From an uncultured Fibrobacteria bacterium (GTDB lineage Bacteria; Fibrobacterota; Fibrobacteria; UBA11236): DNA of 64,000 bases. The stretch covers positions 1,312,001-1,376,000 of the forward strand of contig OY970309.1 of assembly GCA_963716395.1 (NCBI GenBank), given 5' to 3'. Below, piece by piece: positions 11,838-35,907 of the stretch. The notes under the pieces are model-generated. The model saw nothing but the letters and a program-made list of their open reading frames with translations, did no database searches and was not told where the DNA came from. Position 1 is the first letter of the stretch. Every line of letters begins with the position of its first letter. The position numbers and the translations under genes are program-made.

Positions 11838-11842
11838 CGGCG

Positions 11843-16859: not shown

Positions 16860-17954
16860 TTAAAATGCGACCCGTTTCACCCGTGTAACGAAGAGGTTGC
16901 CGGAATAAGCGGCCACCACGGCAAAACCCGCATGCTCGCCCGCGGGCACGAAGTCGGTCACGTTGCCGCCCAAAGTTTGCGCGGAAACCACGACGCCGGC
17001 ATCGACACGTTGGTTCAAATCGATTTTCTCCACCCCGCCGTCGTTGCCCGCATAATTGGCCGCGCAGGCGAGATACCACATGGTTCCCTCCACATGCGCC
17101 GAAACCGGATTCTTGAATTGCAGCGGAATGGTCGATACGACCTGCTTGGAAGCGGCGTCGATGACCACCACCAGCGACGTGTCTCGCGCCGCGTAGTTGT
17201 AATTGAGACGCTGCAAAGCCACGAAGACGTATCCGTTGTAGGCTGTCGCAAAAGCCATGCGGGGCGTGCCGGCCGCGCTATCGGGCGGGGTTTGGGAATC
17301 ATAGGCGCTGAGATCGAGGGAGTCGAGCGCACCGCCGCCGAGTTGCGCAGGATCGGCCAGCAGCAATGAAGGTTGATTATAACGCGGGATGAACGCGGTT
17401 GCGTTGGCGACGGCGATGTCATAGGGATTGCTGTTGGCGCCGGTTTGCAGATTGAAGACCACGTTCTGACCGGGCGCATGTCCGGTGAACCCGGTGATGA
17501 CGCCGGTGGTGTGATCGAAGAGGTACACCATGCCGCCGGCCGTATCGACGAAGTTGTCGCTGCCGAAGGTCAGCACCGAAGACTGCAAAGATTTTCCTGT
17601 CAAATCCAGCACGCTAATCGACCCTTCGGAATAATCCGTTTCGGTGATCACGACATAGCGGTCTTCGGCCACAGCCATGGAAGAAGCTGGGAGTTTTTCA
17701 GTGTAATACGCCGTGATAAGGCCGGTGCCGGTGTCGGCCACCGCGATGCCGGGATCGCTGGAGTCGCGGTTGGCGACGAGCAACTGGCCGCCGTGCACCA
17801 GCAGTTGCGCCGGTTCCGACAAGCTGTCGACGTTCCTTCCCACCCACGACGCCGCGGGCGGCTGCGAAGCGCCGTCGAAAATGCAGCCGGCCGCGAACAG
17901 GGCGCAACCTGCGACGGCCATCAGGCGCGTTAATAAAGAACTTGTGCTGTTCAT
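16860..17954 (-). CDS. Beta-propeller lipoprotein, BtuG/YncE-like putative cobalamin-binding surface protein
   Basis: Lipobox AAGC; propeller-type repeats (NPYDIAV, VFVALQRL, VVVIDA); directly downstream of the riboswitch-controlled TonB receptor. Confidence 0.65.
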   Translation of the reverse strand: MNSTSSLLTRLMAVAGCALFAAGCIFDGASQPPAASWVGRNVDSLSEPAQLLVHGGQLLVANRDSSDPGIAVADTGTGLITAYYTEKLPASSMAVAEDRYVVITETDYSEGSISVLDLTGKSLQSSVLTFGSDNFVDTAGGMVYLFDHTTGVITGFTGHAPGQNVVFNLQTGANSNPYDIAVANATAFIPRYNQPSLLLADPAQLGGGALDSLDLSAYDSQTPPDSAAGTPRMAFATAYNGYVFVALQRLNYNYAARDTSLVVVIDAASKQVVSTIPLQFKNPVSAHVEGTMWYLACAANYAGNDGGVEKIDLNQRVDAGVVVSAQTLGGNVTDFVPAGEHAGFAVVAAYSGNLFVTRVKRVAF

Positions 17955-17972
17955 GGAATCTCCTGGCAAAGG

Positions 17973-19916
17973 TTAGAGGTTGAGGGAAAGGGTCAAATCG
18001 AAACTGCGTCCGCTTTGCACGCTGTAGGCGAAATCCTGCGCGCGCTCATCGCCGAGGTTGCGGGCGTCGAAAGCCAGGCGCATGGGGCCGCGGCGGGCTT
18101 CGGCCTGCGCACCCCAGCGCCACGAAGGCGGACGGTGCGTGCCCGGCAAGTCGAGGTCGCCCGGATAATACGGGCCGAGAAGATCCAGCGTCGGACCGGC
18201 CGCCAGGCCGGATAGCGGCTTCCAGAAAAATTCCGCATGGCCCTCCAACGGCGTTTGATAGGCCGGCCAGAGGCCTTGCGCCGGGCCCGACAATACCGAC
18301 AGGTCTTGCCAAGTCAACGCGAACGAGATTTCAAAGCGCCGAGTCTGCACATGGGCTTCGTTTTCCCAACCAGCCGCGCGATACGCCGGGCCATTGGCGT
18401 AATGCAGAAATTGCGTGGAGCCGTAGGCTTCGAGGCGGATGGGGTTGTGATATTCGTTCCAGAACAGCGAAGTTTGCACGCGCAGGCCGCCGCGCCGCCA
18501 CGTGCCCGTGGCTTCGCCGGAACGGGTTTGCTGGGACTGCAAACCGAGATCGGGACGGATGCCGAGATTGTCGCCCAACAATTCCTGCGCCGAAGGCGCC
18601 CGCTCTTCCCACCGGCCGAGAAAAACCACCAAGCCCCAGGGGTTTTCCCATTCGCCCGCGGCGCGCGCGGCCAAGGGAGTGCTGCGTTGTGACGCCGGAG
18701 CGGTCGAATCGCCGACGGGAAAAGCGAGCACATGCGCCGCGTCGAATTGCATCCCTTCGCCGCGCGCCTCTCCGGTCACCGAAAGGTTACGGGTGAACCG
18801 GCGGCGCAGCGTGAGGCCGAGGCCGGCGTTCAGGCGTTCGGCTGCGGGCGAGGCGAAGGCCTGATCAAAAGGCGTGGCCGTAGGCTGCACGCTTTCCCAG
18901 CGCGCGCGGGATTCGCTTTCCACTTCCCAGCGCGATCCCAGTGGGAGGTGCACGCGCGCGTCGGCTTCCACCGCCGTGGAAACGCGCGCCTCGGCATAGG
19001 AGAGATAACCGAGCGTCTGGGCGGGATCGCGGTAGTCGTCTTCAAAGCGGCGGGCCTGAATCCCGGCTTCCAGCCAGGCGCCGCCATCGAAAAAAGCCCG
19101 ATCGCGCCAGGCCCCGAGCCATTCCTGGTGTCGGGTGTAGGCTTGCGCCTGGGCCGGAAAAAGTCCCGGATATTGCTTGAGATATTCGATTCCAATCAGC
19201 GACAGGGTTTGCGATCCGGCCTCCGAGGCGCGTTGCAGCGACGCGCGGGCGCCCCGGCTCCAGTAGGCGTTGTTGGCCAGACGCGTTGCGGCATCGTCGC
19301 CGGCGTTGTAAACGGTGTAATTATCGGTGGAATAGGGATAGTCGTTCCGGCTGTCCTGGCCTTCGAGGCCTACCGTCCACTTCCAGGCGGATCCGCCGCT
19401 CACCGCAGCGGCGGCCTCGGCCGTGGAAAAGCTGCCGAGCCGCGCGGCCGCTTCGGCGCGGTGCGGCGACGCGGTGGAAAGATCGATGCGCGCCAGCGTT
19501 CCCGGAGCGCCGGCGCCGAAGGCGTCGAACCCGCTGCGGGCGGTGAGCCCCGAAAACCAAAGCAGGGGCCATTTGGAAAGGTCGGGCGCGGATTCGCCTT
19601 CCTGGTTGAGCCGAATGCCGTCGAGATCGATTTCGACCGCACCCGCGTCGGCTCCGCGGAAACTGAGCTCGGAATAACCGCCCAATCCGCCGGCTTGGCG
19701 CATGCGAAAGCCGGGGATCGAAGCCAGGGCGTCGGCCAGGGACGCGAAGCGCAACAACTGCTCTTGGTTCAGGCGATGCACCGACGCTGCGGCCGAATCG
19801 ACGGGTCGGCCGGCGACGCCTACCGCGGACAGTTCCAAGGTATCGGGCGCATCGGCCGCAACGGCCACTGCCGCCAGGGCCAGAAGCAATCCCGCCCGCC
19901 ATTTCCGGGGCAGCAT
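17973..19916 (-). CDS. TonB-dependent receptor, probable cobalamin importer (BtuB-like)
   Basis: Plug motif LADALASIPGFRMRQAGGLGGYSELSFRG...IDLDGIRLN; C-terminal RNLGD...GRSFDLTLSLNL; cobalamin riboswitch upstream. Confidence 0.8.
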   Translation of the reverse strand: MLPRKWRAGLLLALAAVAVAADAPDTLELSAVGVAGRPVDSAAASVHRLNQEQLLRFASLADALASIPGFRMRQAGGLGGYSELSFRGADAGAVEIDLDGIRLNQEGESAPDLSKWPLLWFSGLTARSGFDAFGAGAPGTLARIDLSTASPHRAEAAARLGSFSTAEAAAAVSGGSAWKWTVGLEGQDSRNDYPYSTDNYTVYNAGDDAATRLANNAYWSRGARASLQRASEAGSQTLSLIGIEYLKQYPGLFPAQAQAYTRHQEWLGAWRDRAFFDGGAWLEAGIQARRFEDDYRDPAQTLGYLSYAEARVSTAVEADARVHLPLGSRWEVESESRARWESVQPTATPFDQAFASPAAERLNAGLGLTLRRRFTRNLSVTGEARGEGMQFDAAHVLAFPVGDSTAPASQRSTPLAARAAGEWENPWGLVVFLGRWEERAPSAQELLGDNLGIRPDLGLQSQQTRSGEATGTWRRGGLRVQTSLFWNEYHNPIRLEAYGSTQFLHYANGPAYRAAGWENEAHVQTRRFEISFALTWQDLSVLSGPAQGLWPAYQTPLEGHAEFFWKPLSGLAAGPTLDLLGPYYPGDLDLPGTHRPPSWRWGAQAEARRGPMRLAFDARNLGDERAQDFAYSVQSGRSFDLTLSLNL

Positions 19917-20049
19917 ACAGCCTTTCTCCGCGGGATCGCGCCGCGGGAAATCTGCGCCTACGGAACAAACGGGTAACGGTAACGGCTGAGATACGGCGGA
20001 AAAATGCCGCCGGCTCGCCTGCCCCCGCGCCCGTAGAGCAGTCGTCAGC

Positions 20050-20290
20050 CTGTAGGTGAGTCTTCTGGCTCGCGGTTTGGAGCGGAACGCTCCCCTCCTC
20101 TTTGGCCTTCCCGGCGGACGAACCTGCGGATGGCCGCACCTTGGGGCCGTTCCGTGGTCGCCTCTCCAGTGGCCGGCGCGCCGGGGGCGCGCCGCAAAAG
20201 GAGTTCAACCGCTTACAGCGACGAGCTCGCTCCCGATTCGCACGGGATTCCTCGTTATGTCCCCGCCTGAGGCGGGGACTCCCTGCAAGC
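20050..20290 (-). promoter_or_regulatory. Cobalamin (B12) riboswitch
   Basis: The minus strand reads AGGAATCCCGTGCGAATCGGGAGCGAGCTCGTCGCTGTAA...GCCACTGG...CCGGGAAGGC...GCGAGCCAGAAGACTCACC. These are the conserved cobalamin riboswitch blocks in the correct order, upstream of a TonB receptor. Confidence 0.85.
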
Positions 20291-20368
20291 GGGCAGGAAG
20301 GTATATCGGCGCAATATCGGCGGCAAGGGAAGGGCCGGCGAATTATTTTGCGAAGAAGGTTTATCCCT

Positions 20369-21463
20369 ATGATTTCCGGAAACAGCGGGCGGCACCCAGG
20401 TTTAAGAGCGGGTATCGGAGTCGGCGTTTGGGCGTTGCTCGGCGCCTGTTCGGGATCGCATGCGCCTGCCGTACACCGCTGGTACGGCATGGACACCGAT
20501 TTCTCGGCCGCGCTGTACGGCCGGGGATCGGTGCCGGCCGACACGGCCTTTGCCGACCTCGAGCATGAAAGCCAGCGCCTCGAACGCGTGTTCAGCGACT
20601 TCATGCCCAACTCCGATTTGAGTCGCCTGTTGGGAAAAGCGGGCGACACCATCACCACCGATCCGGAAATCATCCAGGTGTTCCGCAGCGCCCAGGAAAT
20701 GGCGGTGGCCTCGCGGGGCCGTTTCGATATCACCTTGCACCGTTTGAAAATCGCCTGGGGACTGGCCAGCGGCGACTCGGGGCGCATCCCCACTGAAGCC
20801 GAAATCGCGAATGCCATGCGCGGCGATCCGGCTTACCACGTCGCGCCCGGCGTCAATCCGGCCCTGCAACCGCCCTACCGCATTCTCTCCGATCGCCGCC
20901 TGCTCCTGCTGCGCGACAGCGCGGTTTTCGACCTGGGCGGAATCGCCAAAGGTTATACCGTGGATCGGTTGCATGATTTACTGGATTCGCTCGGCTTTCC
21001 CGATCACATCGTGCAGGCCGGAGGCGATTTACGCTTGGGCGGCCGCAAGCCCGACGGCCGGCCGTGGAATGTCGGCATCCGCCATCCGCGTCATTCCGAC
21101 TCGCTGGCGGGAGACTTGACGTTGAAACATCCTTACGCCGTCTCGACCTCGGGCGATTACGAACGCTATTTCATCCGCGACGGAATCCGCTATCACCACA
21201 TCTTCGATCCCTATACCGGCCGGCCGGCCCGGCCCTATTGTTCGGTTACGGTGCTGGCCGCGACCAGCGAAGAGGCCGACCGGTTGAGCAAACCCTTGTT
21301 CATCCTGGGTCCGGCGCAAAGCGGCGATTTGCTGCAAAGCTTTCACGCCGAAGCGGTCTGGATTCGCGCCGACCCCGCGGGCCTTTGTTACACGGCTTCG
21401 GCGGGAATGCTGGACAAGTTGTCCATCCCACACATTCCCCCATGCCCGCCGGACGGGCTCTGA
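20369..21463 (+). CDS. apbE: FAD:protein FMN transferase (ApbE), lipoprotein
   Basis: Lipobox LGAC; GMDT, FDIT, DLGGIAKGY, AGGDL, VGIRHPR, STSGDYERY and YHHIFDPYTG motifs. Confidence 0.95.
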   Translation: MISGNSGRHPGLRAGIGVGVWALLGACSGSHAPAVHRWYGMDTDFSAALYGRGSVPADTAFADLEHESQRLERVFSDFMPNSDLSRLLGKAGDTITTDPEIIQVFRSAQEMAVASRGRFDITLHRLKIAWGLASGDSGRIPTEAEIANAMRGDPAYHVAPGVNPALQPPYRILSDRRLLLLRDSAVFDLGGIAKGYTVDRLHDLLDSLGFPDHIVQAGGDLRLGGRKPDGRPWNVGIRHPRHSDSLAGDLTLKHPYAVSTSGDYERYFIRDGIRYHHIFDPYTGRPARPYCSVTVLAATSEEADRLSKPLFILGPAQSGDLLQSFHAEAVWIRADPAGLCYTASAGMLDKLSIPHIPPCPPDGL

Positions 21464-21689
21464 GCGGAAGGTTCCCATGCGCCCGCGTGTTGGGAACGGA
21501 TCCGGCCCGCCTGGGCAACGACTCCACGTTGTAACGATGATTTCAAAATAACCGGTTCGGATACTTTCGTTTTCGCTTCGAATCAAACCTGATTCGATAA
21601 GTGGGGGCGGGTCGAAAATACTTCCTGCGCGATTAAAAGTTCGGCTTTACATCAAATAACGGCCAAAAAATTGTCTTTCACGGGTGAAA

Positions 21690-22475
21690 ATGAAATTCTC
21701 GGAGCGAAGTGCGAAAGCCAAAGGTTTCGGATTGTCCAAAGCCTTTTTCCGGTATTTGCCCTTCACCGTTTTGGGGTTTACCGCCTGCGATCTGGTTCCC
21801 GGTTTTACCCCCAGCGCCTCGCTCAAGGCGGGGAGCGGCCCGGCTCCGCTGATAGGCCCCAACTGTGCAAGTTGCCATCAATATCCACTGACCGACGTGC
21901 ATCACATTTATCACCTCGTGTCCAACAATGTCAACAGCGACAACCTGGGCCGGCCCCAGCTCAACGGCTACACTACTTGCATGGATTGCCATTTCAATTC
22001 CATCCGCCATTTCAGCTACTTCCATTACGACACGGTCTGGGTGGATGTGAACGGCGACACCCTCTATCAGCACACTTCGCCGACGGATCGCATCGGCGCC
22101 ATTCATGCTTACCACCGCTACCATCCCCTGCCCTACGGCGTGTTTGACACCACCCAGGGCGAAGCCCTGGCCGACAGTATCGACACCCTCATCGTTCAGA
22201 AGTCCCGGGTGGGAAAACTGGTGGAATGGATGACGTCGACCGCCCATGACAACGGCCAGATCGACGTGATCTTCGCCCCCAACGACGTCGATGCGGATTC
22301 GGTGGTGGCCGCCTTTCATCCCAAAGACTTGTCGTGTTCGACCATCGCCTGCCACAATGCGCCCGACGTGTACCGTTGGGCCAACGCTTCCATGGGCTTG
22401 AGCCAATGCCCTTCGGTGGACGGTCTCGACACCACCTGCGCATTGGACACCACCTTGGGAGGCTTGGCGCCGTGA
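21690..22475 (+). CDS. Multiheme c-type cytochrome lipoprotein (2 CxxCH + 1 CxxxxCH)
   Basis: Lipobox FTAC; CASCH, CMDCH, and HDNGQIDVIF...CSTIACH...W resembling the Geobacter CxxxxCH/CxxCH domain. Confidence 0.75.
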   Translation: MKFSERSAKAKGFGLSKAFFRYLPFTVLGFTACDLVPGFTPSASLKAGSGPAPLIGPNCASCHQYPLTDVHHIYHLVSNNVNSDNLGRPQLNGYTTCMDCHFNSIRHFSYFHYDTVWVDVNGDTLYQHTSPTDRIGAIHAYHRYHPLPYGVFDTTQGEALADSIDTLIVQKSRVGKLVEWMTSTAHDNGQIDVIFAPNDVDADSVVAAFHPKDLSCSTIACHNAPDVYRWANASMGLSQCPSVDGLDTTCALDTTLGGLAP

Positions 22476-22699
22476 AACGCATCGTGCTTTCCGCCCTGGC
22501 GACTCTGGCTGCGTTGTCGGCCATGGGGGGTCTCATGCAATGCGCTCCCGTGCCCCAGCGCGAGCGTGAGTATTTGAGCGATCCCATCCTGCAGCGCCAG
22601 GCCGATCCTATGGAAAGCCGCTTGGAAAGCCATGACTTCCCGCGCCGCGAAGGCTCGGTGGGCGGAAGCTCGGGGGCCGGAGGAGGCTGCGGGTGTTGA
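22472..22699 (+). CDS. DUF4266 domain protein
   Basis: CAPVPQREREYLSDP...REGSVGGSSGAGGGCGC* is the DUF4266 pattern. The GTG overlaps the upstream TGA. Confidence 0.85.
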   Translation: MKRIVLSALATLAALSAMGGLMQCAPVPQREREYLSDPILQRQADPMESRLESHDFPRREGSVGGSSGAGGGCGC

Positions 22700-23901
22700 C
22701 CCGCAGACGCACCGCCATGGCGCTGTCACTCGGGGTACTGATGGGTTCCGCGGCGCGCGCGGGAGACGACGGAGGGACCTTGGATTTGAAGTACGAATAC
22801 TTCTGGGATCGCAACCAGGTATGGAATCACACGCCGGCCTTCGATCTCAATCTGCCCCTTTCGCGCAAATGGAATTTCGGCTGGGAGCAGGAGGTCGACG
22901 TGGTGAGCGGCGCCTCGCGTTATCTCGGCGCCAAGCAAGTCGCGCCCTTCGGCGGCCAGCCCATCGACATCGTGTCGGGCGCTTCCAAGGTCGAAGAGCG
23001 CTACTCGGAAAATCCGTCGCTGACCTACTCCCATGCAGGCCTGACCTATTCAGGCGGGGTGTATTACAGCACCGAAGACGATTACACCTCGTTCTCTCCT
23101 TCCGGTTCCTTTTCGGTCGATTTAAACGATCGCAACACCACCGTGGGCGGCAATTACGCCGAGTTCTTCGACAACTTCCATCCCACCGGAGTTTTCGCGG
23201 ATACCGGAATCCGTTCGGATCAAGGTGGGAACAAACGCATCTCGTCGGTGGGGGCCACCTGGGCGCAAACCCTGACCCCGCTCACCTTGGTGGGCATCAC
23301 CGCCGATTACATCTACAGCCGCGGCTATTTGGGGCACCCTTATAATCCGCCCATGGATTCGGCGGGCACGCTGTTCCTCGAAGAGGTGCCGCATCGCAAA
23401 AACGCAGGAGCCCTATCGTTCCAACTCGTGCAGGGTTTTCATCTGGGCGACAATCTCGGTTCGATCAATCTCGACGTGCGCAATTACAAAGACGATTGGG
23501 GCCTGCGTTCCTGGACGGCGGACGCCAAGTTTTTCCAATATCTCACCGACGGGTTCTACCTGCGGCTGCGCGGCCGTTACTACACCCAGACCGGAACTTT
23601 TTTCGCGCAGAAATATTACGGGGGTCACGAGGTTTACCGCACGGCCGACATCCGCTTTTTCCCGTGGAGTTCCTTTTTGGCCGGCCTCAAACTCTCCGGC
23701 CCTTTTCCCGACGCGTGGGACGGGTTTTTGCTTTTGCCGGATCGGTGGGACATTTCTTACGACCAGCTCGTGCGCGGCACCCATGGCGACCTGTTGAACC
23801 CTCCGCAGGGCACGCCGCGCAGCGACTTGTACCAACTCTACGGACCGGATGAGAATTACCTGCAGGGCACGATTCTGGCGGGCCTCATCTTTAATTTGTG
23901 A
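22693..23901 (+). CDS. DUF3570 outer-membrane protein with two putative flavinylation motifs
   Basis: VDVVSGAS and IDIVSGAS, YSTEDDYTS, LNDRNTT, GYLGHPY, YKDDWG and RYYTQT; located between DUF4266 and TlpA. Confidence 0.85.
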   Translation: MLTRRRTAMALSLGVLMGSAARAGDDGGTLDLKYEYFWDRNQVWNHTPAFDLNLPLSRKWNFGWEQEVDVVSGASRYLGAKQVAPFGGQPIDIVSGASKVEERYSENPSLTYSHAGLTYSGGVYYSTEDDYTSFSPSGSFSVDLNDRNTTVGGNYAEFFDNFHPTGVFADTGIRSDQGGNKRISSVGATWAQTLTPLTLVGITADYIYSRGYLGHPYNPPMDSAGTLFLEEVPHRKNAGALSFQLVQGFHLGDNLGSINLDVRNYKDDWGLRSWTADAKFFQYLTDGFYLRLRGRYYTQTGTFFAQKYYGGHEVYRTADIRFFPWSSFLAGLKLSGPFPDAWDGFLLLPDRWDISYDQLVRGTHGDLLNPPQGTPRSDLYQLYGPDENYLQGTILAGLIFNL

Positions 23902-23918
23902 TGGAAAGGAGACGGGGA

Positions 23919-24413
23919 ATGATACACAAATCACTTTTTCGCGCGACGGGAATGGCTTTGGCTTTGACGGCCGCGACCTGGGCCGGGGCGCCGCTCACCC
24001 ATTTGCCGCGCTTTAAACTTTCGGATCTCACCGGTAAAACGTGGTCGAGCGCGCAATTCATGGGACGCCCCCTGGTGATCGATTTTTGGGCCACCTGGTG
24101 CCATACCTGCAAAGAAACCATACCCAAGCTCGTCGAGATCAACGAGAAGTACAAAGACAAGGGGCTGACCATCATCGGCATCAGCGAAGACAAGTCGTCG
24201 GACGAGAAGGTGCAGCGCGAAGCGAAAAAGTTCGGCATCAACTATCTCGTGCTGCACGACAAAGACAATTCTTTTGGCAGCCTGTTCGGATTCTCCGGCA
24301 TTCCCTCGCTCTACGTATTCAACCGCCGCGGCGAACTCAAAACCGCCATGCCGGGATACGATCCCGACGAGGAAAAGCAGTTGGATCAGGCCGTACAACA
24401 AGTCCTGCATTGA
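23919..24413 (+). CDS. TlpA/ResA-family thiol-disulfide oxidoreductase
   Basis: IDFWATWCHTCKETIP and GIPSLYVF; signal peptide; AAAGGAG RBS. Confidence 0.9.
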   Translation: MIHKSLFRATGMALALTAATWAGAPLTHLPRFKLSDLTGKTWSSAQFMGRPLVIDFWATWCHTCKETIPKLVEINEKYKDKGLTIIGISEDKSSDEKVQREAKKFGINYLVLHDKDNSFGSLFGFSGIPSLYVFNRRGELKTAMPGYDPDEEKQLDQAVQQVLH

Positions 24414-24434
24414 CGCCGAAGAAAGGAGGATGCC

Positions 24435-25142
24435 ATGAACCTGTTCAGCACGGATCACATGTCTTCGGCCCTTTCGACCGGGTCGGTGGGCGTGATATTC
24501 CTGTGTTTCGCCGCGGGCGTGGGTTCGAGCTTCACGCCCTGCATTTACCCCTTGATTCCGGTAACGGTGGGCATTCTGGGTTCGCGTCAGGCCGAATCCA
24601 AAATCATGGGCTTTCTGTTGACCCTGGTGTATGTGCTGGGCATCGCCACCACCTACGCGGCTTTGGGTATGGTGGCCGCCTTCACCGGATCGCTGTTCGG
24701 ATCGCTCAGCGCCAATCCCTGGGTACTGATGGGGGTTGCGGTGGTCATCATGGGTTTGGCCTTATCCATGCTCGAAGTGTTCCATCTCAATTTCGCCCTC
24801 CTGACCCCCAACCTCCAGGGCGGAAAGCGCCGACCGGGGCTGCTTTCGAATTTTTTGTACGGCCTCACCTTCGGCCTGGTCGCTTCGCCCTGCACCGCAC
24901 CGCCGCTGGCCGCCATTTTGACCTGGGTGGGTTCGACCAAAAACGCCATCATGGGCCCGGTTCTGCTCTTCTCTTTTGCGCTGGGAATGGGTTCCGTCCT
25001 CATTTTATTGGGAACTTTCTCGTCTTTTCTCACGCGGCTGCCGCGATCGGGAGTGTGGATGGTGCATATCAAAAAAACCATGGGATATCTCATGATCCTC
25101 ATGGCCGGATATTTCGTATTTCAGGCCGGGCGCCAATGGTAG
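24435..25142 (+). CDS. ccdA: CcdA / DsbD transmembrane electron-transport domain
   Basis: SFTPCIYPLIP and ASPCTAPPL catalytic Cys motifs; LPRSGVWM. Confidence 0.9.
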   Translation: MNLFSTDHMSSALSTGSVGVIFLCFAAGVGSSFTPCIYPLIPVTVGILGSRQAESKIMGFLLTLVYVLGIATTYAALGMVAAFTGSLFGSLSANPWVLMGVAVVIMGLALSMLEVFHLNFALLTPNLQGGKRRPGLLSNFLYGLTFGLVASPCTAPPLAAILTWVGSTKNAIMGPVLLFSFALGMGSVLILLGTFSSFLTRLPRSGVWMVHIKKTMGYLMILMAGYFVFQAGRQW

Positions 25143-25187
25143 GCGGCGGCCGGAGCAAGTGATTCATTTAGCCTGGGAGGGGTTGAC

Positions 25188-25709
25188 ATGAACAAGCGAA
25201 TTCTATTTCCCGCCATGGCGGTTTGCGCCTTGCTGCTGCTTTCCCTGCATCGGCGCAGTGATGCCGAACCCGACGTGATCTCAGCGGCCAGCATTGCCGT
25301 GGGCAGCACTTCCATCACACAAACCTCGGCGGTGGTCACCTATTCCAACGACCGCTACAATTACGGCGTGCGCACCATGTGCTATGACCCGGCCCCCTTG
25401 GCGCCCCAGGATAGTTGCCAAGCGCATAATGCCTCGGGCAATTCGGGATCATTCACGATTAATGGGCTCAAACCCGGCACCGCGTACAATTTCGTGGTCA
25501 CGGCCACTGACCCCGGGAACTCGCGTCATCGCCCTTATTCCACCAACGGGACGTTCACGACCCAGGGCCAGCCTTCAGGTCTCACCTTGCCCGTTAACCA
25601 AACGTCGGCGGTTGGGGCGGGTGCCGCCGTGTATGACCTGCGCGGCCGGTTGCTGCCGCGGCCACAGCTCCGGCGGGCGCTCGAAGGGGTCACGCGCCCG
25701 GTACCGTGA
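25188..25709 (+). CDS. Secreted fibronectin type III domain protein with a short C-terminal tag
   Basis: Signal peptide; SITQTSAVVTY...INGLKPGTAYNFVVTATD...FTT FN3 pattern; C-terminal AVYDLRGR; N-terminal DVISAAS. Confidence 0.7.
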   Translation: MNKRILFPAMAVCALLLLSLHRRSDAEPDVISAASIAVGSTSITQTSAVVTYSNDRYNYGVRTMCYDPAPLAPQDSCQAHNASGNSGSFTINGLKPGTAYNFVVTATDPGNSRHRPYSTNGTFTTQGQPSGLTLPVNQTSAVGAGAAVYDLRGRLLPRPQLRRALEGVTRPVP

Positions 25710-25738
25710 CTCAAATGTGACCAGATTCGGGGAAAAGC

Positions 25739-26128
25739 ATGTTTCGCGCCGGCTCTTTTTTCCGCCCCCTGGATGCGGCCGTGTGGGTGGCCATCACCTG
25801 CGCTTCGGCCTGGGGGTTCGCGCATTTCCAAATGGTCAAGGGTTCGCGCGCCGTCATTTACGTGGCCGACAAGAAATACGGCTGGTATGATTTGGCGGGG
25901 CCGCGGCAAGAACTCACCGTCCCCACCCGTATCGGTCCGGTGCGCGTGGAGGTGGGCGGCGGTACGGTCCGCGTGCTGCATTCGCCCTGTCCGAACAAGA
26001 TTTGCATGAAAACCGGAGCCATCCGCATGGTGCATTCCGAAATCGTGTGCATGCCGGCCCGGTTGCTCGTCACAGTGGAAGGCGACGGGGGTGAAGACGC
26101 GGGAGGCACCGATGCCGTCACCTATTGA
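25739..26128 (+). CDS. NusG domain II-like (DUF1312) membrane-anchored protein
   Basis: VRVLHSPCPNKICMKTGAI...IVCMPARLLV and C-terminal DAVTY are the family signature. Confidence 0.85.
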   Translation: MFRAGSFFRPLDAAVWVAITCASAWGFAHFQMVKGSRAVIYVADKKYGWYDLAGPRQELTVPTRIGPVRVEVGGGTVRVLHSPCPNKICMKTGAIRMVHSEIVCMPARLLVTVEGDGGEDAGGTDAVTY

Positions 26129-27263
26129 TCGAGAGCATCGAGAGGAAACGCCGGTCCGGGCCCCGGCGCCGAAACTTACCGCGGGGCAGTTCGCCCTGGC
26201 GCTCCTGGCCGCATCGAGCCTGCAAATCATGGAAAACCTTATTCCGCGTTTTCCGCTTTTCCCCTGGCTGCGCGTGGGACTTTCCTATGTGATCATTCTA
26301 CCGTTTCTTTTGCAATTTGGGCCACGCGCCGCCTTCGCGCTGGTGCTGGGCCGCAACCTGGTGGCGGTGCTGTATGGCGGCCAGCCGTTTTCGACCTTTC
26401 TCATCAGCAGCAGTTCCGGCGTCGTGGCTTTTCTGGGGTTGGGCTGGCCGGTGCGGTGGCTGTATGCGCGCCGCCTGTTGGGACTTTCGGGCGCGGGAGT
26501 GCTGCTGGCCACGGTTTTCAACATTACCCAATTGGTCTTGGTGGAATGCGTCTTGATCCGGCATGCCGGGTTTTTTTTCCAAATCGGCCCGATTCTGGCC
26601 TGGTCGGCGCTGTCGGGCGTGGCGGTAGCGGCCTTCATTCGTTATGCGGAAGGCGATCTGCTGGCTTGGTTTCAGCGCACCGCCCGGGAAACCTCGATGA
26701 CCGCTCCCCGCATGCGCCGCAACGACACCCGCCTCTTCGCCGCCGGCCTGGCCGCCTTGGGGGCGGTATTGCTGCTGCCGTTCTTGTCTCTGCAAATCGC
26801 CGCCCTGCTCATTGTGCTTTTCGCGTCGCGCGGGCAAAGCAAGATTCTGTTTTCCGCCTGGCCATTCTTCTTCTACCTGGCTTGGCTGCATTTGTTCCAC
26901 ACCGCCGGCGAATATTGGATCGGCGACTGGGTCACGCGTCAGGGCGTCGCGGCGTTTTGCTTTTACACGGTGCGTTTGGCCAATCTCATTTTGCTGGGCC
27001 GCTGGATTTCCGGCCGATTTCCCTGGCACTGGGGCGAGCGTTCGGGTTCGGTCTATGCCCAAGGCTTTTTGCTGTCCTTGCCTTTGATGACCGACATTTT
27101 CGAATCCAGCCTGCGCCTCGGCCGCGAAATGGGAAGGCGTTTGTGGTCGGGTAACCGGCGGGGGGCGTTGACGCCGGCTTTCGATGCCTGGCAAGCCAAG
27201 GTGGAGACGGGATCGGAGGCGCCGTCCGTCTTCGGCGGAGCGGCCGCACCGATCACCAACTGA
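26112..27263 (+). CDS. Gx-transporter (heptaprenyl-PP synthase component I-like) domain fused to an EcfT/CbiQ-like membrane domain
   Basis: N-half: ENLIP...PWLRVGLS, TFLISSSSG, GLSGAGVL...FNITQL (Gx family). C-half: LHLFHTAGE...VTRQGV...TVRL resembles EcfT. ATG at 26112 after GGGAGG. Confidence 0.7.
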   Translation: MPSPIDREHREETPVRAPAPKLTAGQFALALLAASSLQIMENLIPRFPLFPWLRVGLSYVIILPFLLQFGPRAAFALVLGRNLVAVLYGGQPFSTFLISSSSGVVAFLGLGWPVRWLYARRLLGLSGAGVLLATVFNITQLVLVECVLIRHAGFFFQIGPILAWSALSGVAVAAFIRYAEGDLLAWFQRTARETSMTAPRMRRNDTRLFAAGLAALGAVLLLPFLSLQIAALLIVLFASRGQSKILFSAWPFFFYLAWLHLFHTAGEYWIGDWVTRQGVAAFCFYTVRLANLILLGRWISGRFPWHWGERSGSVYAQGFLLSLPLMTDIFESSLRLGREMGRRLWSGNRRGALTPAFDAWQAKVETGSEAPSVFGGAAAPITN

Positions 27264-30102
27264 AGTAGCGCACCATGATGGCCAGCGTGTCGGTGATGAG
27301 CGAGGTTCCGTTCGCCGGCATGTGATCGGTATTGGTCACCGGCAACTCGATGCGCCGCACGATTTCCTGTTTCACCAGGTTGGGTGGATTGTAGGTGCTG
27401 ACATCCAGGGCATGAGCCGAATCCAGCTTGGGCAGGCCGCCGCTCAGACCCGCATGGCAGGCGGCGCAGCGGGCGTTGATGATGCCCTGCACCTTGGAAA
27501 ACGGCGGACGCCAAATCGTGAAGGTCGCTGAATCCCGGGGCCCGTCGGCCGATGTGGCCGTAATCGATCCGGTCCCCAAGGCCGTGCCGAAGAATACCGG
27601 CGTGCCGGTATTGCGCACCTGCACGAGGCTCGGAGTTCCCGTACTCAAGGTGTAGGTCTTGAGGGTGGTGTTGGTGGGCGTCCACGCCAAAGCCGGTGTG
27701 TCGGCAACCATGGGGCTGTCGGCATAGATGGGCCCGGTCAAAGTGAGTTTGATGGCCGTGGCGGTCACGTTGCCCACCGTCACTTTGAACTGGGTCACGT
27801 AATCTTTGTCGGTGGCATCGATGGTGACGGTGGCCGTGCCGACGCCGTTGGCCTGGAGCTGCGGCGCGCTGGAGGCGGGATTGACCACGCTCACGATCGA
27901 ATCGGCCGCGCTTTGCAAGGTATAGGCCTTGTTGGTGGCGGTGGACGGGTACCAGGTGATGGCGGGAGAAAACTCCGCGCCCACGGTCACGGTTTGATCC
28001 GCCACCTTGATGCTGTCGACGCGCACCGGCCCCACGGCGAATTGCAGGGTGTCTTTCGCGGCCGCGGTACCGTGGCTGGTCACCAAAATTTGCGCCGTAC
28101 CCTGGGTTTTCCCCACCACAAACACGCCTTGCGACACTACGGCGATGGCCGGGGTCGGCGCAAGATAGGCCAAGCCCCAGGTGGTGTCGGTGGCATTCTG
28201 CGGATAGACCATAACGCGCGGCATCACCGTATCGCCGATGGCGCCGCCCGTATCCACGACCCGGATCGAATCTACGGGAACGGGCGCGACGCTGACGGCG
28301 AAGGCTTTTTGCAGCGAACTCTCCTCGGTTTCGAGAATCACCGTAGTGGGCGACGTGGTCAGCGCCTTGCCGTAGAGGTGCAAGCCGTCGGGGCTGGTGA
28401 CTTTGGTGGTGTCGGTGACGGCCAGCACCAGGTGGTAATTGCGATCCGAGGCGTTGGACGGATAGAAATGCGCGACCGGGCTTTTGGTTTCGCCCACGTG
28501 CAAGGTCAGGCTGTCGACCGCCACGCTGTCGAGCTTGAGGTAAAAGGCGTTGAGCCAGCCCAGCATGGCTTTGAGTTGCCGGGTCGAAAGCTTCAAGGCC
28601 GTGTCGGCCGGCATGTGATCGGGACTGGAAACCGGCAATTGGATGCGCCGCAGCGTTTCGGCGCCGTACTGAACCAGCACCGCCGAGTCTTGCAGGTTGA
28701 AAGTTCGGAGGGGAGAATGGCATTCGCCGCATTCGGCGGTGGTGATGGGTTTGATGCGGGTGGCGAAATCCGGCAGGCCCGCCTTCACTTTGAAGGTTTT
28801 TTGCAAGCCGCCGTCGTCGGAAGTCACGGTGATGTTAACCGTCCCGGTGTCATAAATCAGGAGCGCCCCGCCCGAAACCTGCGCGATGCCCGTATTCGCA
28901 GACAGCAGGGTATAGTTTTTGTCGGTGGCATTGGAGGGCGTCCATTGCAGCGCCGGCACTACCGAATCGCCGAGATCGACGGTCGTATCATTTACGGTTA
29001 ATCCCGTGACGGGTTTGACGTTTTGCAACAGCCAGTACACCAGCATTTGCTTGTCGCGCGGCGGCAGCACGGCTTTGTTGGCGGGCATATAACCCGTGTC
29101 GCTGACGGGAAGGTTGAGGCGGACCAGCGCCTTCGATCCCTTGGACACCAGCACGCTGGAGTCCTGCAGGTTGAACGTCACGTCCGGGCCGTGGCATTGG
29201 CCGCACCATTGTTTGGTGATGGGCTGGATGTCGGAGAAATTCGGCGCCCGCACCGTCACCGCGAAGGTGTCGCGCACCCCGTTGGCCGCGGCCACCGCCA
29301 CCCCGCGGGTGCCGCCGATTTTCCGCGCCAAAAACGCGGTGTCAATTACCGACGCGACGGAAGTGTCGAGGCTGGAAAGGGCGAACCCCTTTTGGGTGGT
29401 ATTGGCCGGCCACCACGTAAGGGCCGGCCGCAAGGTGTCATAGAGCGGGCCGGTGAGATCCGCCACGGTGAGCGAGTCGGACGCCACGACATCGCGCGTG
29501 ATGTGCAGCGCAAAGGATTTGGTGATCTTGGCGTCGCCGGCCGTCACGTGAATGGTCGCGGTTCCCGAATCCAAACCGGCGATGCGATGGCCGAGCACCT
29601 TGGCTTTGGTCGAGTCCGACGAAGTGGCCGAGAACTGGGTGTCGACGGCATCGGGCGGAATGAAAACGGGAATTAGAGTAAACGTATCTCCGGGCGCAAC
29701 CGAGGCGTCGGCCACGGTGATGTCGCGCAGCAATGTGGCGGGAGTCACGGTGGAGTCCAAATGTCCATCCAGGTATTGGAATTGTTTTTTATACGAGGCG
29801 CTACCGCCGGAAAAGCCCGTAATCACCACGGTGAATTGCGAACCCACCACGGTGGGCTTGGTCACGCTTACCGTGGTCTGGGTAGGCGTCAGGGGCAGAC
29901 TTTTCGTCCACACTGCCGAGTCGGCGGTGTCGGAGGGAAAGACCTCAATGCGCAGGCTGTCGAATTTTCCAATCTGGGCCGAGTCGAGCGCAAACACCAA
30001 CTCGGTGGTCGTCGTATCGCTTTGCTGGCAGGACGACCACCACAGCCCCGCCCCCGCCAGGAGCAGCAAAGTCAATAACCGTATGCGGGCGCGGGACATC
30101 AT
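27253..30102 (-). CDS. 949-aa lipoprotein with seven Big_2-type Ig repeats and three monoheme cytochrome c domains
   Basis: Lipobox WSSC. CGQCH, CGECH and CAACH are each followed by a distal MP (GYMPA, DHMPA, DHMPA). Ig repeats carry P-x-[N/D/T]-[A/T]-like cores such as PSNAT and PQNAT. Confidence 0.85.
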   Translation of the reverse strand: MMSRARIRLLTLLLLAGAGLWWSSCQQSDTTTTELVFALDSAQIGKFDSLRIEVFPSDTADSAVWTKSLPLTPTQTTVSVTKPTVVGSQFTVVITGFSGGSASYKKQFQYLDGHLDSTVTPATLLRDITVADASVAPGDTFTLIPVFIPPDAVDTQFSATSSDSTKAKVLGHRIAGLDSGTATIHVTAGDAKITKSFALHITRDVVASDSLTVADLTGPLYDTLRPALTWWPANTTQKGFALSSLDTSVASVIDTAFLARKIGGTRGVAVAAANGVRDTFAVTVRAPNFSDIQPITKQWCGQCHGPDVTFNLQDSSVLVSKGSKALVRLNLPVSDTGYMPANKAVLPPRDKQMLVYWLLQNVKPVTGLTVNDTTVDLGDSVVPALQWTPSNATDKNYTLLSANTGIAQVSGGALLIYDTGTVNITVTSDDGGLQKTFKVKAGLPDFATRIKPITTAECGECHSPLRTFNLQDSAVLVQYGAETLRRIQLPVSSPDHMPADTALKLSTRQLKAMLGWLNAFYLKLDSVAVDSLTLHVGETKSPVAHFYPSNASDRNYHLVLAVTDTTKVTSPDGLHLYGKALTTSPTTVILETEESSLQKAFAVSVAPVPVDSIRVVDTGGAIGDTVMPRVMVYPQNATDTTWGLAYLAPTPAIAVVSQGVFVVGKTQGTAQILVTSHGTAAAKDTLQFAVGPVRVDSIKVADQTVTVGAEFSPAITWYPSTATNKAYTLQSAADSIVSVVNPASSAPQLQANGVGTATVTIDATDKDYVTQFKVTVGNVTATAIKLTLTGPIYADSPMVADTPALAWTPTNTTLKTYTLSTGTPSLVQVRNTGTPVFFGTALGTGSITATSADGPRDSATFTIWRPPFSKVQGIINARCAACHAGLSGGLPKLDSAHALDVSTYNPPNLVKQEIVRRIELPVTNTDHMPANGTSLITDTLAIMVRYFSW

Positions 30103-30830
30103 CAGAGGTGGGTCAAAACCGTGTCGACTTTATTGTTTGAGCCTCCCGACGCCGCCACAATGACGCCCACCACGGCCACGGCGACGACCCCGCCCGCGGC
30201 CACCCACATCCAGGTGTGATTGCGGCGCTCCGGTTCGGCGGCTGCCGGCGCCGCGGCCGTTGAGCCCGGCGGCGATGTCTTGGCCGCTGCCAGCGACGAT
30301 GCTGCAGAGTTGGCCGACTCCGGATGTGCGGCCAGGGCCCGTCGCACCGAATCGCGGCGCACGCTGTCGGCCGCCCATTGCCGGAGGATGATCTGTTTTT
30401 GTTTGTCGAACGTCGTGTCGTGGTAATTCTGTTCGTAACGCCGGCGCACCTTTTCAAAAATGTTTTCCACGTTCATGCCCACGCCCAAATCCGTAAGATT
30501 GGCGTTGGGATCGAGTTTAAGCAGGTCGTACAAGAAGGATTCAGCCTTTTTGCGGGTGCCTTCGTCGGCGCCGTAAATTACGCCCAGGTATTTGAAAATG
30601 AAAATCGAATCTTCGCGGTCATGCAGGCGATGTTCATAGCGCAGGTTTTCCAGCAGCGCCACCAAGGCTTCAAAGTCGCCGGCCAGATACAGGCCTTGGA
30701 TTTCCGATTTGTTGAAACTCGAAACTGCAGGAGCCGCGGCAGGTTCGGGTGCGGGAGGTGGGGAATTGCCCGAAAGCGCCAGCACCGGAAGCAGGAACAA
30801 GGCCGAACCCAACCACCAAATTTTTCCCAT
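30102..30830 (-). CDS. Exported TPR-like protein with a C-terminal hydrophobic/Gly-rich segment
   Basis: Signal peptide; YLAGDF...FKYLGVIY...YDLLKLDPN helical repeat; WMWVAAGGVVAVAVVGVIV. Its stop overlaps the cytochrome gene start (TGATG). Confidence 0.7.
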   Translation of the reverse strand: MGKIWWLGSALFLLPVLALSGNSPPPAPEPAAAPAVSSFNKSEIQGLYLAGDFEALVALLENLRYEHRLHDREDSIFIFKYLGVIYGADEGTRKKAESFLYDLLKLDPNANLTDLGVGMNVENIFEKVRRRYEQNYHDTTFDKQKQIILRQWAADSVRRDSVRRALAAHPESANSAASSLAAAKTSPPGSTAAAPAAAEPERRNHTWMWVAAGGVVAVAVVGVIVAASGGSNNKVDTVLTHL

Positions 30831-31162
30831 GGCCCTTCTCGCGCCGACGTTCAGAATTATAGCCGGACCGCCAGCAAGTTAAGCCGGACCCCTGGTTTTT
30901 GGCAAGCGTTCGGCCGGTTGCATTGGGGAATTCGAGGTTAAATGCAGCTCGAATCCATTCCGAAAGGGCATGAGGCGACCCGTCAAATTCGGATTTCAAT
31001 AGTGCAAAAGAACCCTTCTTTTCAATTTTTTCCAAAAGCCTAAGCTGGATTTCGTCTCCTCAAAGCCAAGGCAGAGGTCCGTTGCTTCCAGACGGGACCA
31101 TAAATTCAATACTGATTGCTAAAGCTATCTTTCCCGGCGGCAAAGAGTAATAAGGAGGTATT

Positions 31163-31906
31163 ATGAAATTGCCCGCATTCATTTTGATTATATCCGCATC
31201 CTTCGCATGCGCCAATCCTTTTGCATCGATAAAAAGCCTTTCCGAATTAATGAAATCCCATGGTTCCGAGCCCTTGATGAAAGTCTCGGCCACGTCGGCG
31301 ACAGCGCTATCCGGCTCGCAAGATCCGGATTTGGTGGGCTTTTGGGTTTTAGACTCGACGATTTCGAGCATCGACACGATAAGCGATTCGCTCATCTTTA
31401 CCTATGACTTCCATATTCGCGAAGAAGCCTACTTGGCGTCGGATGGATCGTTCGAGGTGCGAAGTCAAGACATCGTCACCAGCTCCACCCTCATGGATAC
31501 GATTGAGGGTCGCTCCCTCGGCCAATGGGCCACCGCCGGCGGAAAGATGTTCACGCAAGCCACCTCCAGCGTTTCGTGGAGCAGCCTGAACCATACCACG
31601 ACCAACGACAGTTTGGGTGGAGCCGACACGGGCAGTTATTCGTTTGTGGATGGGGGGAAAACCAAGGTCGAATTCCTCGGCAGCAGTTTGGATTCCTCTT
31701 CTTCCGATACCATTTTCTTCACGAAATCCGGAGCTTCGGCGAATTTCACCGTGCCCGAATTGACGTCAAGCCCCATTCTGGCACAACTACCCGCCGCCAG
31801 AAAATCGATCTCTTATTTGCCGGCGACCCCGATGCCCTTGTTCCGGTATCAGAACGGGTATTACCGCATCAGCGGCACCAGGGATAGAATTCCCGGAAGC
31901 CCCTAA
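31163..31906 (+). CDS. Secreted lipocalin-like beta-barrel protein
   Basis: AAGGAGG RBS and signal peptide; LVGFW, GQW and GSYSF motifs; visibly more AT-rich than its neighbours. Confidence 0.55.
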   Translation: MKLPAFILIISASFACANPFASIKSLSELMKSHGSEPLMKVSATSATALSGSQDPDLVGFWVLDSTISSIDTISDSLIFTYDFHIREEAYLASDGSFEVRSQDIVTSSTLMDTIEGRSLGQWATAGGKMFTQATSSVSWSSLNHTTTNDSLGGADTGSYSFVDGGKTKVEFLGSSLDSSSSDTIFFTKSGASANFTVPELTSSPILAQLPAARKSISYLPATPMPLFRYQNGYYRISGTRDRIPGSP

Positions 31907-35301: not shown

Positions 35302-35907
35302 TTAATGCAGACGGGACAGCGCTTTGGAAACCGAAATCGGATTCTTGGCTTTGACCTGTACGGCGAAGCGCCGGCGCGGATCGGGGTCGCGTGTCAGGGT
35401 AAACTCCCCCGATCCGAACAACGCCGACAACAGGCGGTCAAGCTCGGGCTTCACCGCGGCCAAGGTGTCGTCGTGATTGGGAGCCGCGGCGCGGTTGTTC
35501 ACGATCAAAGCGAGGTCGCCGCCCAGGAACACAGGCCGGGTTGGGAAAGAGGCCTCGCCTTCGAGGCGAAGCGCCGCCCGTAACGCCGCCGTTAATGACT
35601 CGCGCAGCTTGTCGGCGTTGGACCCGGAGGCGGGCTGCCGCCGATCGTACAACAGGCCGAGCCGGCGTCCGGCCCCGTCCAGGGAATAATTGACCTGCAA
35701 GCCGGCCAGCAAGATCACCGGGCCGTCCTCGACATGGCTGTAATCCGCCACGTCGACGAAGACTTCGGGGCTGTCGGGAATCCAGGTGTTGAACACGCGG
35801 AACCACGCTTCCGGTTGCTGCGAAGCCCCGTTTTCCAAGTGGATTTTCCATTGCAGGTTTTGCAAATCCACTGACAATTCCATCGATAAATCCAGCGACG
35901 ATTCCAT
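35302..35907 (-). CDS. Conserved hypothetical protein coupled to the sulfite/nitrite reductase
   Basis: Its start overlaps the reductase stop (TGATG). FNTWI...VDVADYSHVEDGPVILL block looks conserved. Confidence 0.7.
   Translation of the reverse strand: MESSLDLSMELSVDLQNLQWKIHLENGASQQPEAWFRVFNTWIPDSPEVFVDVADYSHVEDGPVILLAGLQVNYSLDGAGRRLGLLYDRRQPASGSNADKLRESLTAALRAALRLEGEASFPTRPVFLGGDLALIVNNRAAAPNHDDTLAAVKPELDRLLSALFGSGEFTLTRDPDPRRRFAVQVKAKNPISVSKALSRLH

Follow-up and report, generated by a model that had tools for sequence, protein, structure and literature searches.

A Predicted Flavin-Barrel Redox Locus With a Three-Heme Cytochrome and EetA/EetB Genes in an Uncultured Fibrobacteria Bacterium

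Gene Content of the Locus

The DNA considered here is a stretch of 64,000 nucleotides, called the window, from contig OY970309.1 (positions 1,312,001 to 1,376,000; assembly GCA_963716395.1) of an uncultured Fibrobacteria bacterium. Nine co-oriented genes lie at positions 20369-27263 on the + strand of the window, and this locus is a lineage-specific version of a published, functionally unsolved flavin-barrel redox system of the cell envelope. The window has a G+C content of about 60% and therefore contains many spurious open reading frames (ORFs); the gene map was built from long ORFs with high third-position G+C, and the Pfam scan covered 29 window ORFs. The nine genes are as follows.

20369..21463 (+): ApbE flavin transferase (Pfam ApbE PF02424, E 2.7e-66, profile positions 1-265 of 266)
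21684..22475 (+): predicted three-heme c-type cytochrome lipoprotein, 263 aa (from its motifs; Pfam gives nothing)
22472..22699 (+): DUF4266 small lipoprotein (Pfam PF14086, E 1.5e-13; start inferred at GTG 22472)
22693..23901 (+): DUF3570 predicted outer-membrane barrel (Pfam PF12094, E 5.4e-29)
23898..24413 (+): TlpA-like periplasmic thiol-disulfide oxidoreductase (Pfam Redoxin and AhpC-TSA, each E 1.1e-20, and Thioredoxin_8)
24435..25142 (+): CcdA/DsbD-family membrane thiol electron transporter (Pfam DsbD_TM, E 7.2e-46)
25188..25709 (+): secreted FN3-like protein (Pfam fn3, 22.9 bits, E 9.7e-5, below the cut-off of 25)
25739..26128 (+): EetA, a NusG_II domain membrane protein (Pfam NusG_II, E 2.2e-20)
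26091..27263 (+): EetB fused to a lineage-specific membrane domain, 390 aa (Pfam Hpre_diP_synt_I, PF07456, residues 40-184, E 3.2e-16)

An earlier sequence-only reading of the window had placed the same nine genes at the same positions. Seven of them are named by Pfam above the family cut-offs, while the FN3 label that it had also given is sub-threshold. Its description of the junctions as tight or overlapping, except for a gap of about 220 bp after apbE, agrees with the coordinates, in which the gap between apbE and the heme gene measures 220 bp. The heme gene and the DUF4266 gene overlap by 4 bp, given a DUF4266 start at GTG 22472; the start must lie upstream of 22481, because codon 22481 encodes Ile. 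The next two junctions are -7 bp (DUF4266/DUF3570) and -4 bp (DUF3570/TlpA), followed by spacers of +21 bp (TlpA/CcdA), +45 bp (CcdA/FN3-like) and +29 bp (FN3-like/NusG_II), and the NusG_II and EetB frames overlap by 17-38 bp according to the start codon taken. In the database forms, the EetB fusion begins at 26112 and the heme gene at 21690 (261 aa). A promoter and terminator scan of 19800-31200 gave counts at the level of shuffled sequence (3 vs 3.3 and 13 vs 14.6) and was uninformative. The ApbE carries a lipobox-like LLGAC near its N-terminus, and the TlpA-like protein has the active-site motif WCHTC, with CHTC at residue 68.

The Three-Heme Cytochrome Family

The protein encoded between apbE and the DUF4266 gene has no Pfam match at E <= 0.01 and so matches no curated cytochrome family. 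It carries the motifs CASCH, CMDCH and CSTIACH together with a lipobox-like FTAC. When 17 sequences were aligned, among them members of a second family with 24-27% identity, the alignment showed three invariant motifs, C59xxC62H63, C97xxC100H101 and C216x4C221H222 (numbering of the 261-aa database form), and three further invariant histidines, H72, H75 and H186. Of the 17 rows, 15 show a lipobox-like xxC-D/E, and the remaining two start downstream of the motif. As far as sequence can tell, these features fit a three-heme, bis-His lipoprotein. The relatives of this family amount to just 16 clusters in a database of 5.8 billion proteins; none of the clusters has a Pfam domain, and their sole name is "hypothetical protein". 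In a language-model search the nearest clusters were Cytochrome_C7/c3 (score 0.90, with 155 shared features vs 170 typical of true members), and kinship to these cytochromes is a lead only.

Some of the related loci described below (L030, L033, L039 and L053) have two heme genes in tandem, or a second heme gene or whole heme-DUF4266-DUF3570 triad a few kb away. Much longer ORFs of the heme family, of 501-611 aa, occur in L035, L033 and L057; these are first-start-codon calls and may be over-extended.

The DUF3570 Barrel and DUF4266

The DUF3570 protein has two flavin sites of the ApbE type, VVSGAS at 72-75 and IVSGAS at 95-98, and both [S/T]GA[S/T] motifs are kept in 12 aligned sequences. A structure model from the 12-row alignment (pLDDT, the predicted score of the local distance difference test, 77.8) has 16 strands, and its best Foldseek matches are all outer-membrane barrels, led by BcsC (E 1.6e-9) and followed by OccK, FadL, PelB and AlgE. 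DUF3570 is thus predicted, from the model, to be a 16-strand outer-membrane barrel. Both flavin motifs share one long connection in the model, that between strands 3 and 4, and all five connections longer than 15 residues join odd to even strands; the flavin loop would therefore lie at the outer face if the N-terminus is periplasmic. Within its family the window protein belongs to a divergent, shorter subfamily, as reflected in its Pfam E value of 5.4e-29 vs 1e-110 to 1e-138 in loci from other phyla (the outgroup below).

The DUF4266 lipoprotein has a mature part of 52 residues with a Gly-rich tail ending in CGC, and its lipobox Cys and terminal GGGCGC are invariant in eight sequences. When the heme protein was predicted in complex with DUF3570, DUF4266 and three hemes, separate runs scored 0.63, 0.00 and 0.01, the mark being 0.32, which gives no evidence either way.

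Conservation in Fibrobacterota and Other Phyla

The relatives searched were 61 genomes, that is, the window's own and 60 others, with tallies that include one unpublished genome (G025); these genomes are kin and do not count as independent. A DUF3570 match was found in 33 of the 61 and a PF07456 match in 37, the latter in 31/33 DUF3570-positive genomes vs 6/28 DUF3570-negative ones. In 15 of the 31 genomes with both, the two genes lie no more than about 6 kb apart on one contig, which bears out the earlier proposal that a DsbD/DUF3570 module and a NusG_II/Gx module are joined here. The other genomes with both have them on separate contigs, mostly in fragmented assemblies.

Fourteen linked loci were chosen for a close pair of DUF3570 and PF07456, and only their remaining genes count as findings. 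Their usual order is heme, DUF4266, DUF3570, TlpA, CcdA, FN3-like, ApbE, EetA and EetB fusion, and this conserved order covers two families of the class. Because the order is kept in related genomes, the gene run is more than chance. The heme gene is present in 11 of the 14 loci, TlpA in 13, CcdA in 12 and ApbE in 9; FN3-like homologues were found in seven by tblastn, and ORFs at the same position were seen by inspection in L003, L007 and L011. In 9/14 loci apbE stands between the FN3-like gene and eetA, while in the window it takes the front position, and it is absent from the locus in L008, L009 and L012.

A second set of 65 loci was found with a DUF3570 alignment alone. It comprises 45 loci from Fibrobacterota metagenome-assembled genomes (MAGs) and 20 outgroup loci from Proteobacteria, Zixibacteria and Ignavibacteria, and overlaps with the first set, 11 of the 45 Fibrobacterota loci being the same contigs as the 14 linked loci. 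Hidden Markov models from the first set, run over all ORFs of the 65 loci, detected the heme family within 5 kb of DUF3570 in 39/45 Fibrobacterota loci and in 0/20 outgroup loci. The heme gene is almost always directly upstream of DUF4266, and it nearly always encodes two CxxCH motifs and one CX4CH. Six Fibrobacterota loci are heme-less, four of them at a contig edge (L034, L056, L059 and L060). EetA and EetB are both present in 12/45 Fibrobacterota loci and again in none of the 20 outgroup loci, of which the pattern is TlpA, DUF4266, DUF3570 and ApbE. Among 61 ORFs from seven outgroup loci, a Pfam scan detected neither NusG_II nor Hpre_diP_synt_I, nor an adjacent cytochrome c. One outgroup locus from the Proteobacteria (L069) has, after DUF3570 and at the usual place of ApbE, a long cytochrome b561 ORF (Ni_hydr_CYTB; 10577-12028, +) that may be another membrane electron input.

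Related genomes can have as many as eight DUF3570 matches. Paralogues take the form of bare heme-DUF4266-DUF3570 triads, which TlpA often accompanies; CcdA is restricted to the full loci, and none is found beside the paralogous triads. These triads are surrounded by housekeeping genes (recF-like, gyrB, dnaN, DciA) and by genes for unannotated proteins, none of which hints at a function. Within the genus of the window the locus is patchily distributed, DUF3570 being matched in 1/11 and PF07456 in 2/11 of the other genomes. The window genome is 3.75 Mb in one contig, and the 11 other genomes of the genus range from 1.9 to 2.7 Mb.

In most full relative loci, the heme gene has two divergently oriented neighbours, which encode a DUF4423 protein and a 269-aa secreted protein, as in L003 (5453-6373, -, and 4642-5451, -), and the DUF4423 cluster is present in 15/45 Fibrobacterota loci. 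The DUF4423 pair could be a regulator of the operon. It is not next to the window locus, where apbE and a TonB-dependent receptor gene occupy that place.

EetA and the EetB Fusion Protein

EetB (PF07456) has been described as a subunit like the S-component of energy-coupling factor (ECF) transporters that binds flavin adenine dinucleotide (FAD), and Data Set S1 of the same paper gives the name EetA to PF07009, the family of the gene adjoining EetB here (Rivera-Lugo, 2023, mBio; PMC9973259). The model of the window fusion protein has a pLDDT of 80.6, and residues 28-198 adopt the ECF-S fold (TmRibU, Z 11.6, root-mean-square deviation 3.3, 163 aligned). ECF S-components make up 14 of the 15 best structural matches, with Z between 8.2 and 11.6. 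A Foldseek search of the PDB with the whole fusion model gave nothing at E <= 0.001, and its sole sensible row was RibU (3p5n).

The C-terminal half is less clear-cut. Residues 206-318 align with EcfT of a folate transporter (5d3m_D; Z 8.8, 108 aligned), and the half also aligns with CbiQ (5x41_Q; Z 7.3, about 105 residues), both values lying in the chance range for helical bundles. Its language-model neighbours are short proteins (score 0.88), with one cluster bearing CbiQ on 15% of its members and another automatically named "Cobalt transport protein family". PF07456 is also present in 41/43 database proteins that match the C-terminal half; the other two have 237-252 aa, and one of them is a named partial. 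Where the sources name these proteins informatively, they come from MAGs of Fibrobacteria or Fibrobacterota and are called "Gx transporter family".

Relation to Known Systems

The core of the locus is that of the published "DsbD systems", in which ApbE and DUF3570 are as a rule accompanied by a thioredoxin-like protein and by a DUF4266 whose C-terminus is CXC (Meheust, 2021, eLife 10:e66878; PMC8238504). In that work the ApbE of Chlorobium luteolum is shown to flavinylate the DUF3570 protein of the same organism at two [S/T]GA[S/T] sites, and 227 DsbD-linked DUF3570 clusters and 316 without DsbD are counted, with no function given. The window cluster likewise has an ApbE, a two-site DUF3570, a CXC-ended DUF4266, a thioredoxin-like protein and a DsbD-family protein; the published thioredoxin-like family, PF13899, is not among the window Pfam matches. 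It differs in adding a fixed three-heme cytochrome, an FN3-like gene and EetA/EetB, and in the divergent, shorter form of its DUF3570. The main text of PMC8238504 contains no EetA, EetB, FmnA, PF07456, PF07009, heptaprenyl or ECF, and at least 12 of its 20 cytochrome mentions concern matters other than DUF3570.

The second resemblance is to the EetA/EetB/FmnA/FmnB genes for flavin-based extracellular electron transfer (EET) in Listeria. According to the passages on flavin export in PMC9973259, FAD export for ApbE needs EetB together with the ECF-T FmnA and EcfA/A', and flavinylation in Listeria requires EetB and FmnA. The same source reports 3,328 genomes with eetB beside eetA and 2,169 with eetB beside apbE, and names fusion proteins of EetB and ECF-T. 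The neighbour systems that it names for eetB are Rnf, EET, MsrQ-like and NapH-like ones, not DsbD/DUF3570, and DUF3570/PF12094 has no occurrence in a part of its Data Set S1. As in Listeria, the window has a PF07456 protein with an ECF-S fold adjoining a PF07009 gene, with apbE colocalised, and its EetB is fused to a further membrane module, as published for ECF-T. The sequence-only reading had compared the locus to the Listeria one, and the likeness holds for EetA, EetB and ApbE; it does not extend to Ndh2, the demethylmenaquinone synthesis genes or an FMN_bind lipoprotein (PplA), none of which was detected by Pfam among the 29 window ORFs. In addition, the window host is a diderm, the locus lacks a recognisable ECF-T or ECF ATPase, and the place of the FMN_bind lipoprotein as client would be taken by a predicted outer-membrane barrel.

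Both the DsbD/DUF3570 core and the association of EetA/EetB with ApbE are therefore already published, and the phrase "three normally separate modules" in the sequence-only reading was an overstatement in view of the genome counts and fusions just cited. The literature searched gave no description of a cytochrome fixed to DUF3570, or of EetA/EetB in a DsbD-type cluster, large supplementary tables being a possible exception. What is new relative to the literature searched is the heme partner of DUF4266-DUF3570, the EetA/EetB linkage, and the model of DUF3570 as a 16-strand barrel whose two flavin sites share a single long loop.

Proposed Pathway and Alternative Explanations

Judged from its sequence, the locus comprises all published DsbD-type DUF3570 components and EetA/EetB, to which an FN3-like protein and a predicted three-heme cytochrome specific to Fibrobacterota are added. 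We propose, with a probability of roughly 0.6, that the run at 20369-27263 (+) encodes a single electron-transfer system of the envelope that brings its own cofactor supply. EetB, possibly aided by EetA and by its own fused, short ECF-T-like half, would export FAD, and the lipoprotein ApbE would put flavin mononucleotide (FMN) on the two DUF3570 Ser sites in the periplasm, prior to insertion of the barrel into the outer membrane. The two flavins would then sit on the loop between strands 3 and 4, at the outer face or in the lumen if the N-terminus is periplasmic. Electrons may reach the barrel by a thiol route, from the cytoplasm through CcdA and TlpA to the CGC tail of DUF4266, a path that is the hypothesis published by Meheust (2021, PMC8238504). 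Instead of this route or beside it, the three-heme lipoprotein may provide a heme route, and the electrons would go to, or come from, a partner at the cell surface.

The second ApbE of the genome lies directly after its sole FMN_bind gene, about 600 kb from the locus, so the window ApbE is free to serve DUF3570. Other genome counts are two DsbD_TM genes (one being the window CcdA), three Cytochrom_C_asm genes and one PF07456 gene.

Several observations weigh against a single system. L018 is truly without a heme gene, with no contig edge to explain the absence, and L054 also lacks one away from any contig edge, its DUF3570 match beginning at residue 90. The side of the flavin loop is taken from the strand order of the model, not from coordinates. 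The DUF3570 system is dispensable, since it is found in only 1 of the 11 other genomes of the genus. The supply side is weakened too: for the EetB C-terminal half neither the genome search nor Pfam gave a CbiQ match, its sequence has no PDB match, and its comparison with the genome's own CbiQ gave an hhalign probability of 0.3%. The "EcfT-like" label of the sequence-only reading thus retains a weak structural and language-model resemblance and finds no backing in the sequence comparisons. The half is probably, if unprovenly, a shortened ECF-T, and the ECF-T reading is a weak one. An ATPase gene is absent from the locus in the Pfam scan of window ORFs, and the genome's sole CbiQ, with one ABC ATPase beside it, belongs to a CbiM-CbiQ-ABC ATPase set and so points to no ATPase partner for EetB.

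The strongest alternative is that ApbE, EetA and EetB form a general flavin supply cassette for all extracytoplasmic flavoproteins, which merely stands beside an independent DUF3570 system, so that the adjacency reflects nothing past a shared need for the cofactor. We consider this unlikely, with some weight on its side. The cassette can be detached, because one related genome (G013) has ApbE-EetA-EetB away from its DUF3570 loci and another (G034) has EetA-EetB alone; genomes with 3-8 DUF3570 matches mostly carry one PF07456 match, and EetA/EetB need not be specific to the DUF3570 system. To this may be added that eetB beside apbE is common in bacteria, and that apbE is mobile in the locus: it leads the run here, is the seventh gene in most relatives and has no copy in three of the loci. 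This explanation is at odds with the concentration of PF07456 in DUF3570-bearing relatives (31/33, as against 6/28 of the DUF3570-free ones) and with the close spacing in 15/31 genomes, and the second ApbE beside the FMN_bind gene implies that the cassette is not needed for that client.

A distinctly less probable alternative concerns the thiol arm. CcdA and a TlpA/ResA-like thioredoxin constitute the thioreduction arm of cytochrome c maturation, and the pair encoded here might mature the neighbouring cytochrome, keeping its CxxCH cysteines reduced in the manner of System II CcdA/ResA, and not feed DUF4266 and DUF3570. Besides this textbook role, the excess of Cytochrom_C_asm genes (three) over DsbD_TM genes (only two) speaks for maturation, as does the restriction of CcdA to full loci and its absence beside the paralogous triads. 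A TlpA-like gene, however, flanks DUF4266-DUF3570 in 17/20 outgroup loci, all of them heme-less (Pfam confirms it in three of the seven scanned), and thioredoxin-like genes are typical of the cytochrome-free DUF3570 clusters treated in PMC8238504. The maturation explanation is weakened for TlpA more than for CcdA, because 17/20 cytochrome-free loci keep TlpA.

The two fixed partners narrow the options for a widespread DUF3570 system of no assigned function. The dedicated small cytochrome argues for electron transfer between barrel flavins and heme proteins, beyond thiol chemistry, and the FAD export pair in the locus shows how a diderm may supply its periplasmic ApbE. The barrel model further suggests that electrons may cross the outer membrane via a flavoprotein. 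If this is true, the conduit would be of a novel kind, in a phylum associated chiefly with the breakdown of polymers.

Porin-cytochrome conduits of the MtrAB type consist of an outer-membrane barrel and a ten-heme periplasmic cytochrome. The window locus is similar in having a barrel gene beside that of a periplasmic multi-heme protein and in the possible passage of electrons across the outer membrane; it differs in that its barrel has 16 strands and is predicted to carry two covalent FMN, and in that its cytochrome would have three hemes. There is no sequence relation, and the resemblance is one of working only, not of membership. The heme lipoprotein-DUF4266-DUF3570 triad might be a flavin-based counterpart of these conduits, in which a 16-strand barrel with two covalent FMN on a loop at the surface or in the lumen would receive electrons from the periplasmic side, through a c7-like cytochrome and a small lipoprotein with its thiol tail. 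This idea is tentative and on balance doubtful; if true, Fibrobacterota, with up to eight DUF3570 matches per genome, would gain an unrecognised means of electron exchange with the outside.

The Convergent Gene Pair and Other Flanking Genes

Two genes on the - strand meet the locus head-on and are treated as neighbours outside the system.

27253..30102 (-): Big_2/three-CxxCH cytochrome c lipoprotein-like protein, 949 aa (Pfam Big_2 and Cytochrome_CBB3)
30102..30830 (-): 242-aa secreted/membrane protein, partner of the 949-aa gene

The 949-aa gene overlaps the 3' end of the EetB fusion by 11 bp (27253-27263), as the sequence-only reading had seen, and its label of an Ig/cytochrome c lipoprotein is supported by the two Pfam matches and the three CxxCH motifs. 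Its "TPR" label for the 242-aa protein is not, this protein having no Pfam match at E <= 0.1. The 14 related loci contain no match to either protein. Of the 60 relatives, 21 have homologues of the 949-aa protein, always on contigs other than that of the DUF3570-EetB locus (for example, C249 vs C337 in G012, C52 vs C90 in G021 and C2 vs C47 in G014), and the 11 same-genus genomes yielded none with this query. In L083 a 242-aa homologue is directly upstream of a 949-aa homologue, and so the two genes form a unit of their own.

It is very improbable that the locus is a hybrid including this pair as its surface end: the gene sets do abut with overlapping 3' ends, and two of the nine ORFs with at least two CxxCH motifs among about 2,701 long ORFs of the genome sit within this 10-kb stretch, but the distribution of homologues just described and the lack of a detectable TPR stand against it. 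By the sequence comparisons, the convergent pair is an unrelated neighbour, and its position beside the flavin locus is not conserved. The supplement of c-type cytochromes envisaged in the sequence-only reading therefore holds for the heme gene and fails for the 949-aa protein; the neighbourhood survey finds the heme gene in 39/45 and EetA with EetB in 12/45 of the Fibrobacterota DUF3570 loci.

On the other side, two genes diverge from apbE, one for a TonB-dependent receptor with a Plug domain (17973-19916, -) and one for an unannotated 369-aa lipoprotein-like ORF (16860-17969, -). Both were considered as parts of the system and rejected, neither having a match in the 14 related loci.

Further downstream, 330 bp past the 242-aa gene, a 247-aa lipoprotein-like ORF without a Pfam match (31163-31906, +) carries an SGAS motif (TKSGASA at residue 189), which may be there by chance, and it has one marginal match in the 60 relatives. 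A gene for a 756-aa nitrite/sulfite reductase with NIR_SIR and ferredoxin-like half domains (35907-38177, -) lies 5 kb beyond the locus.

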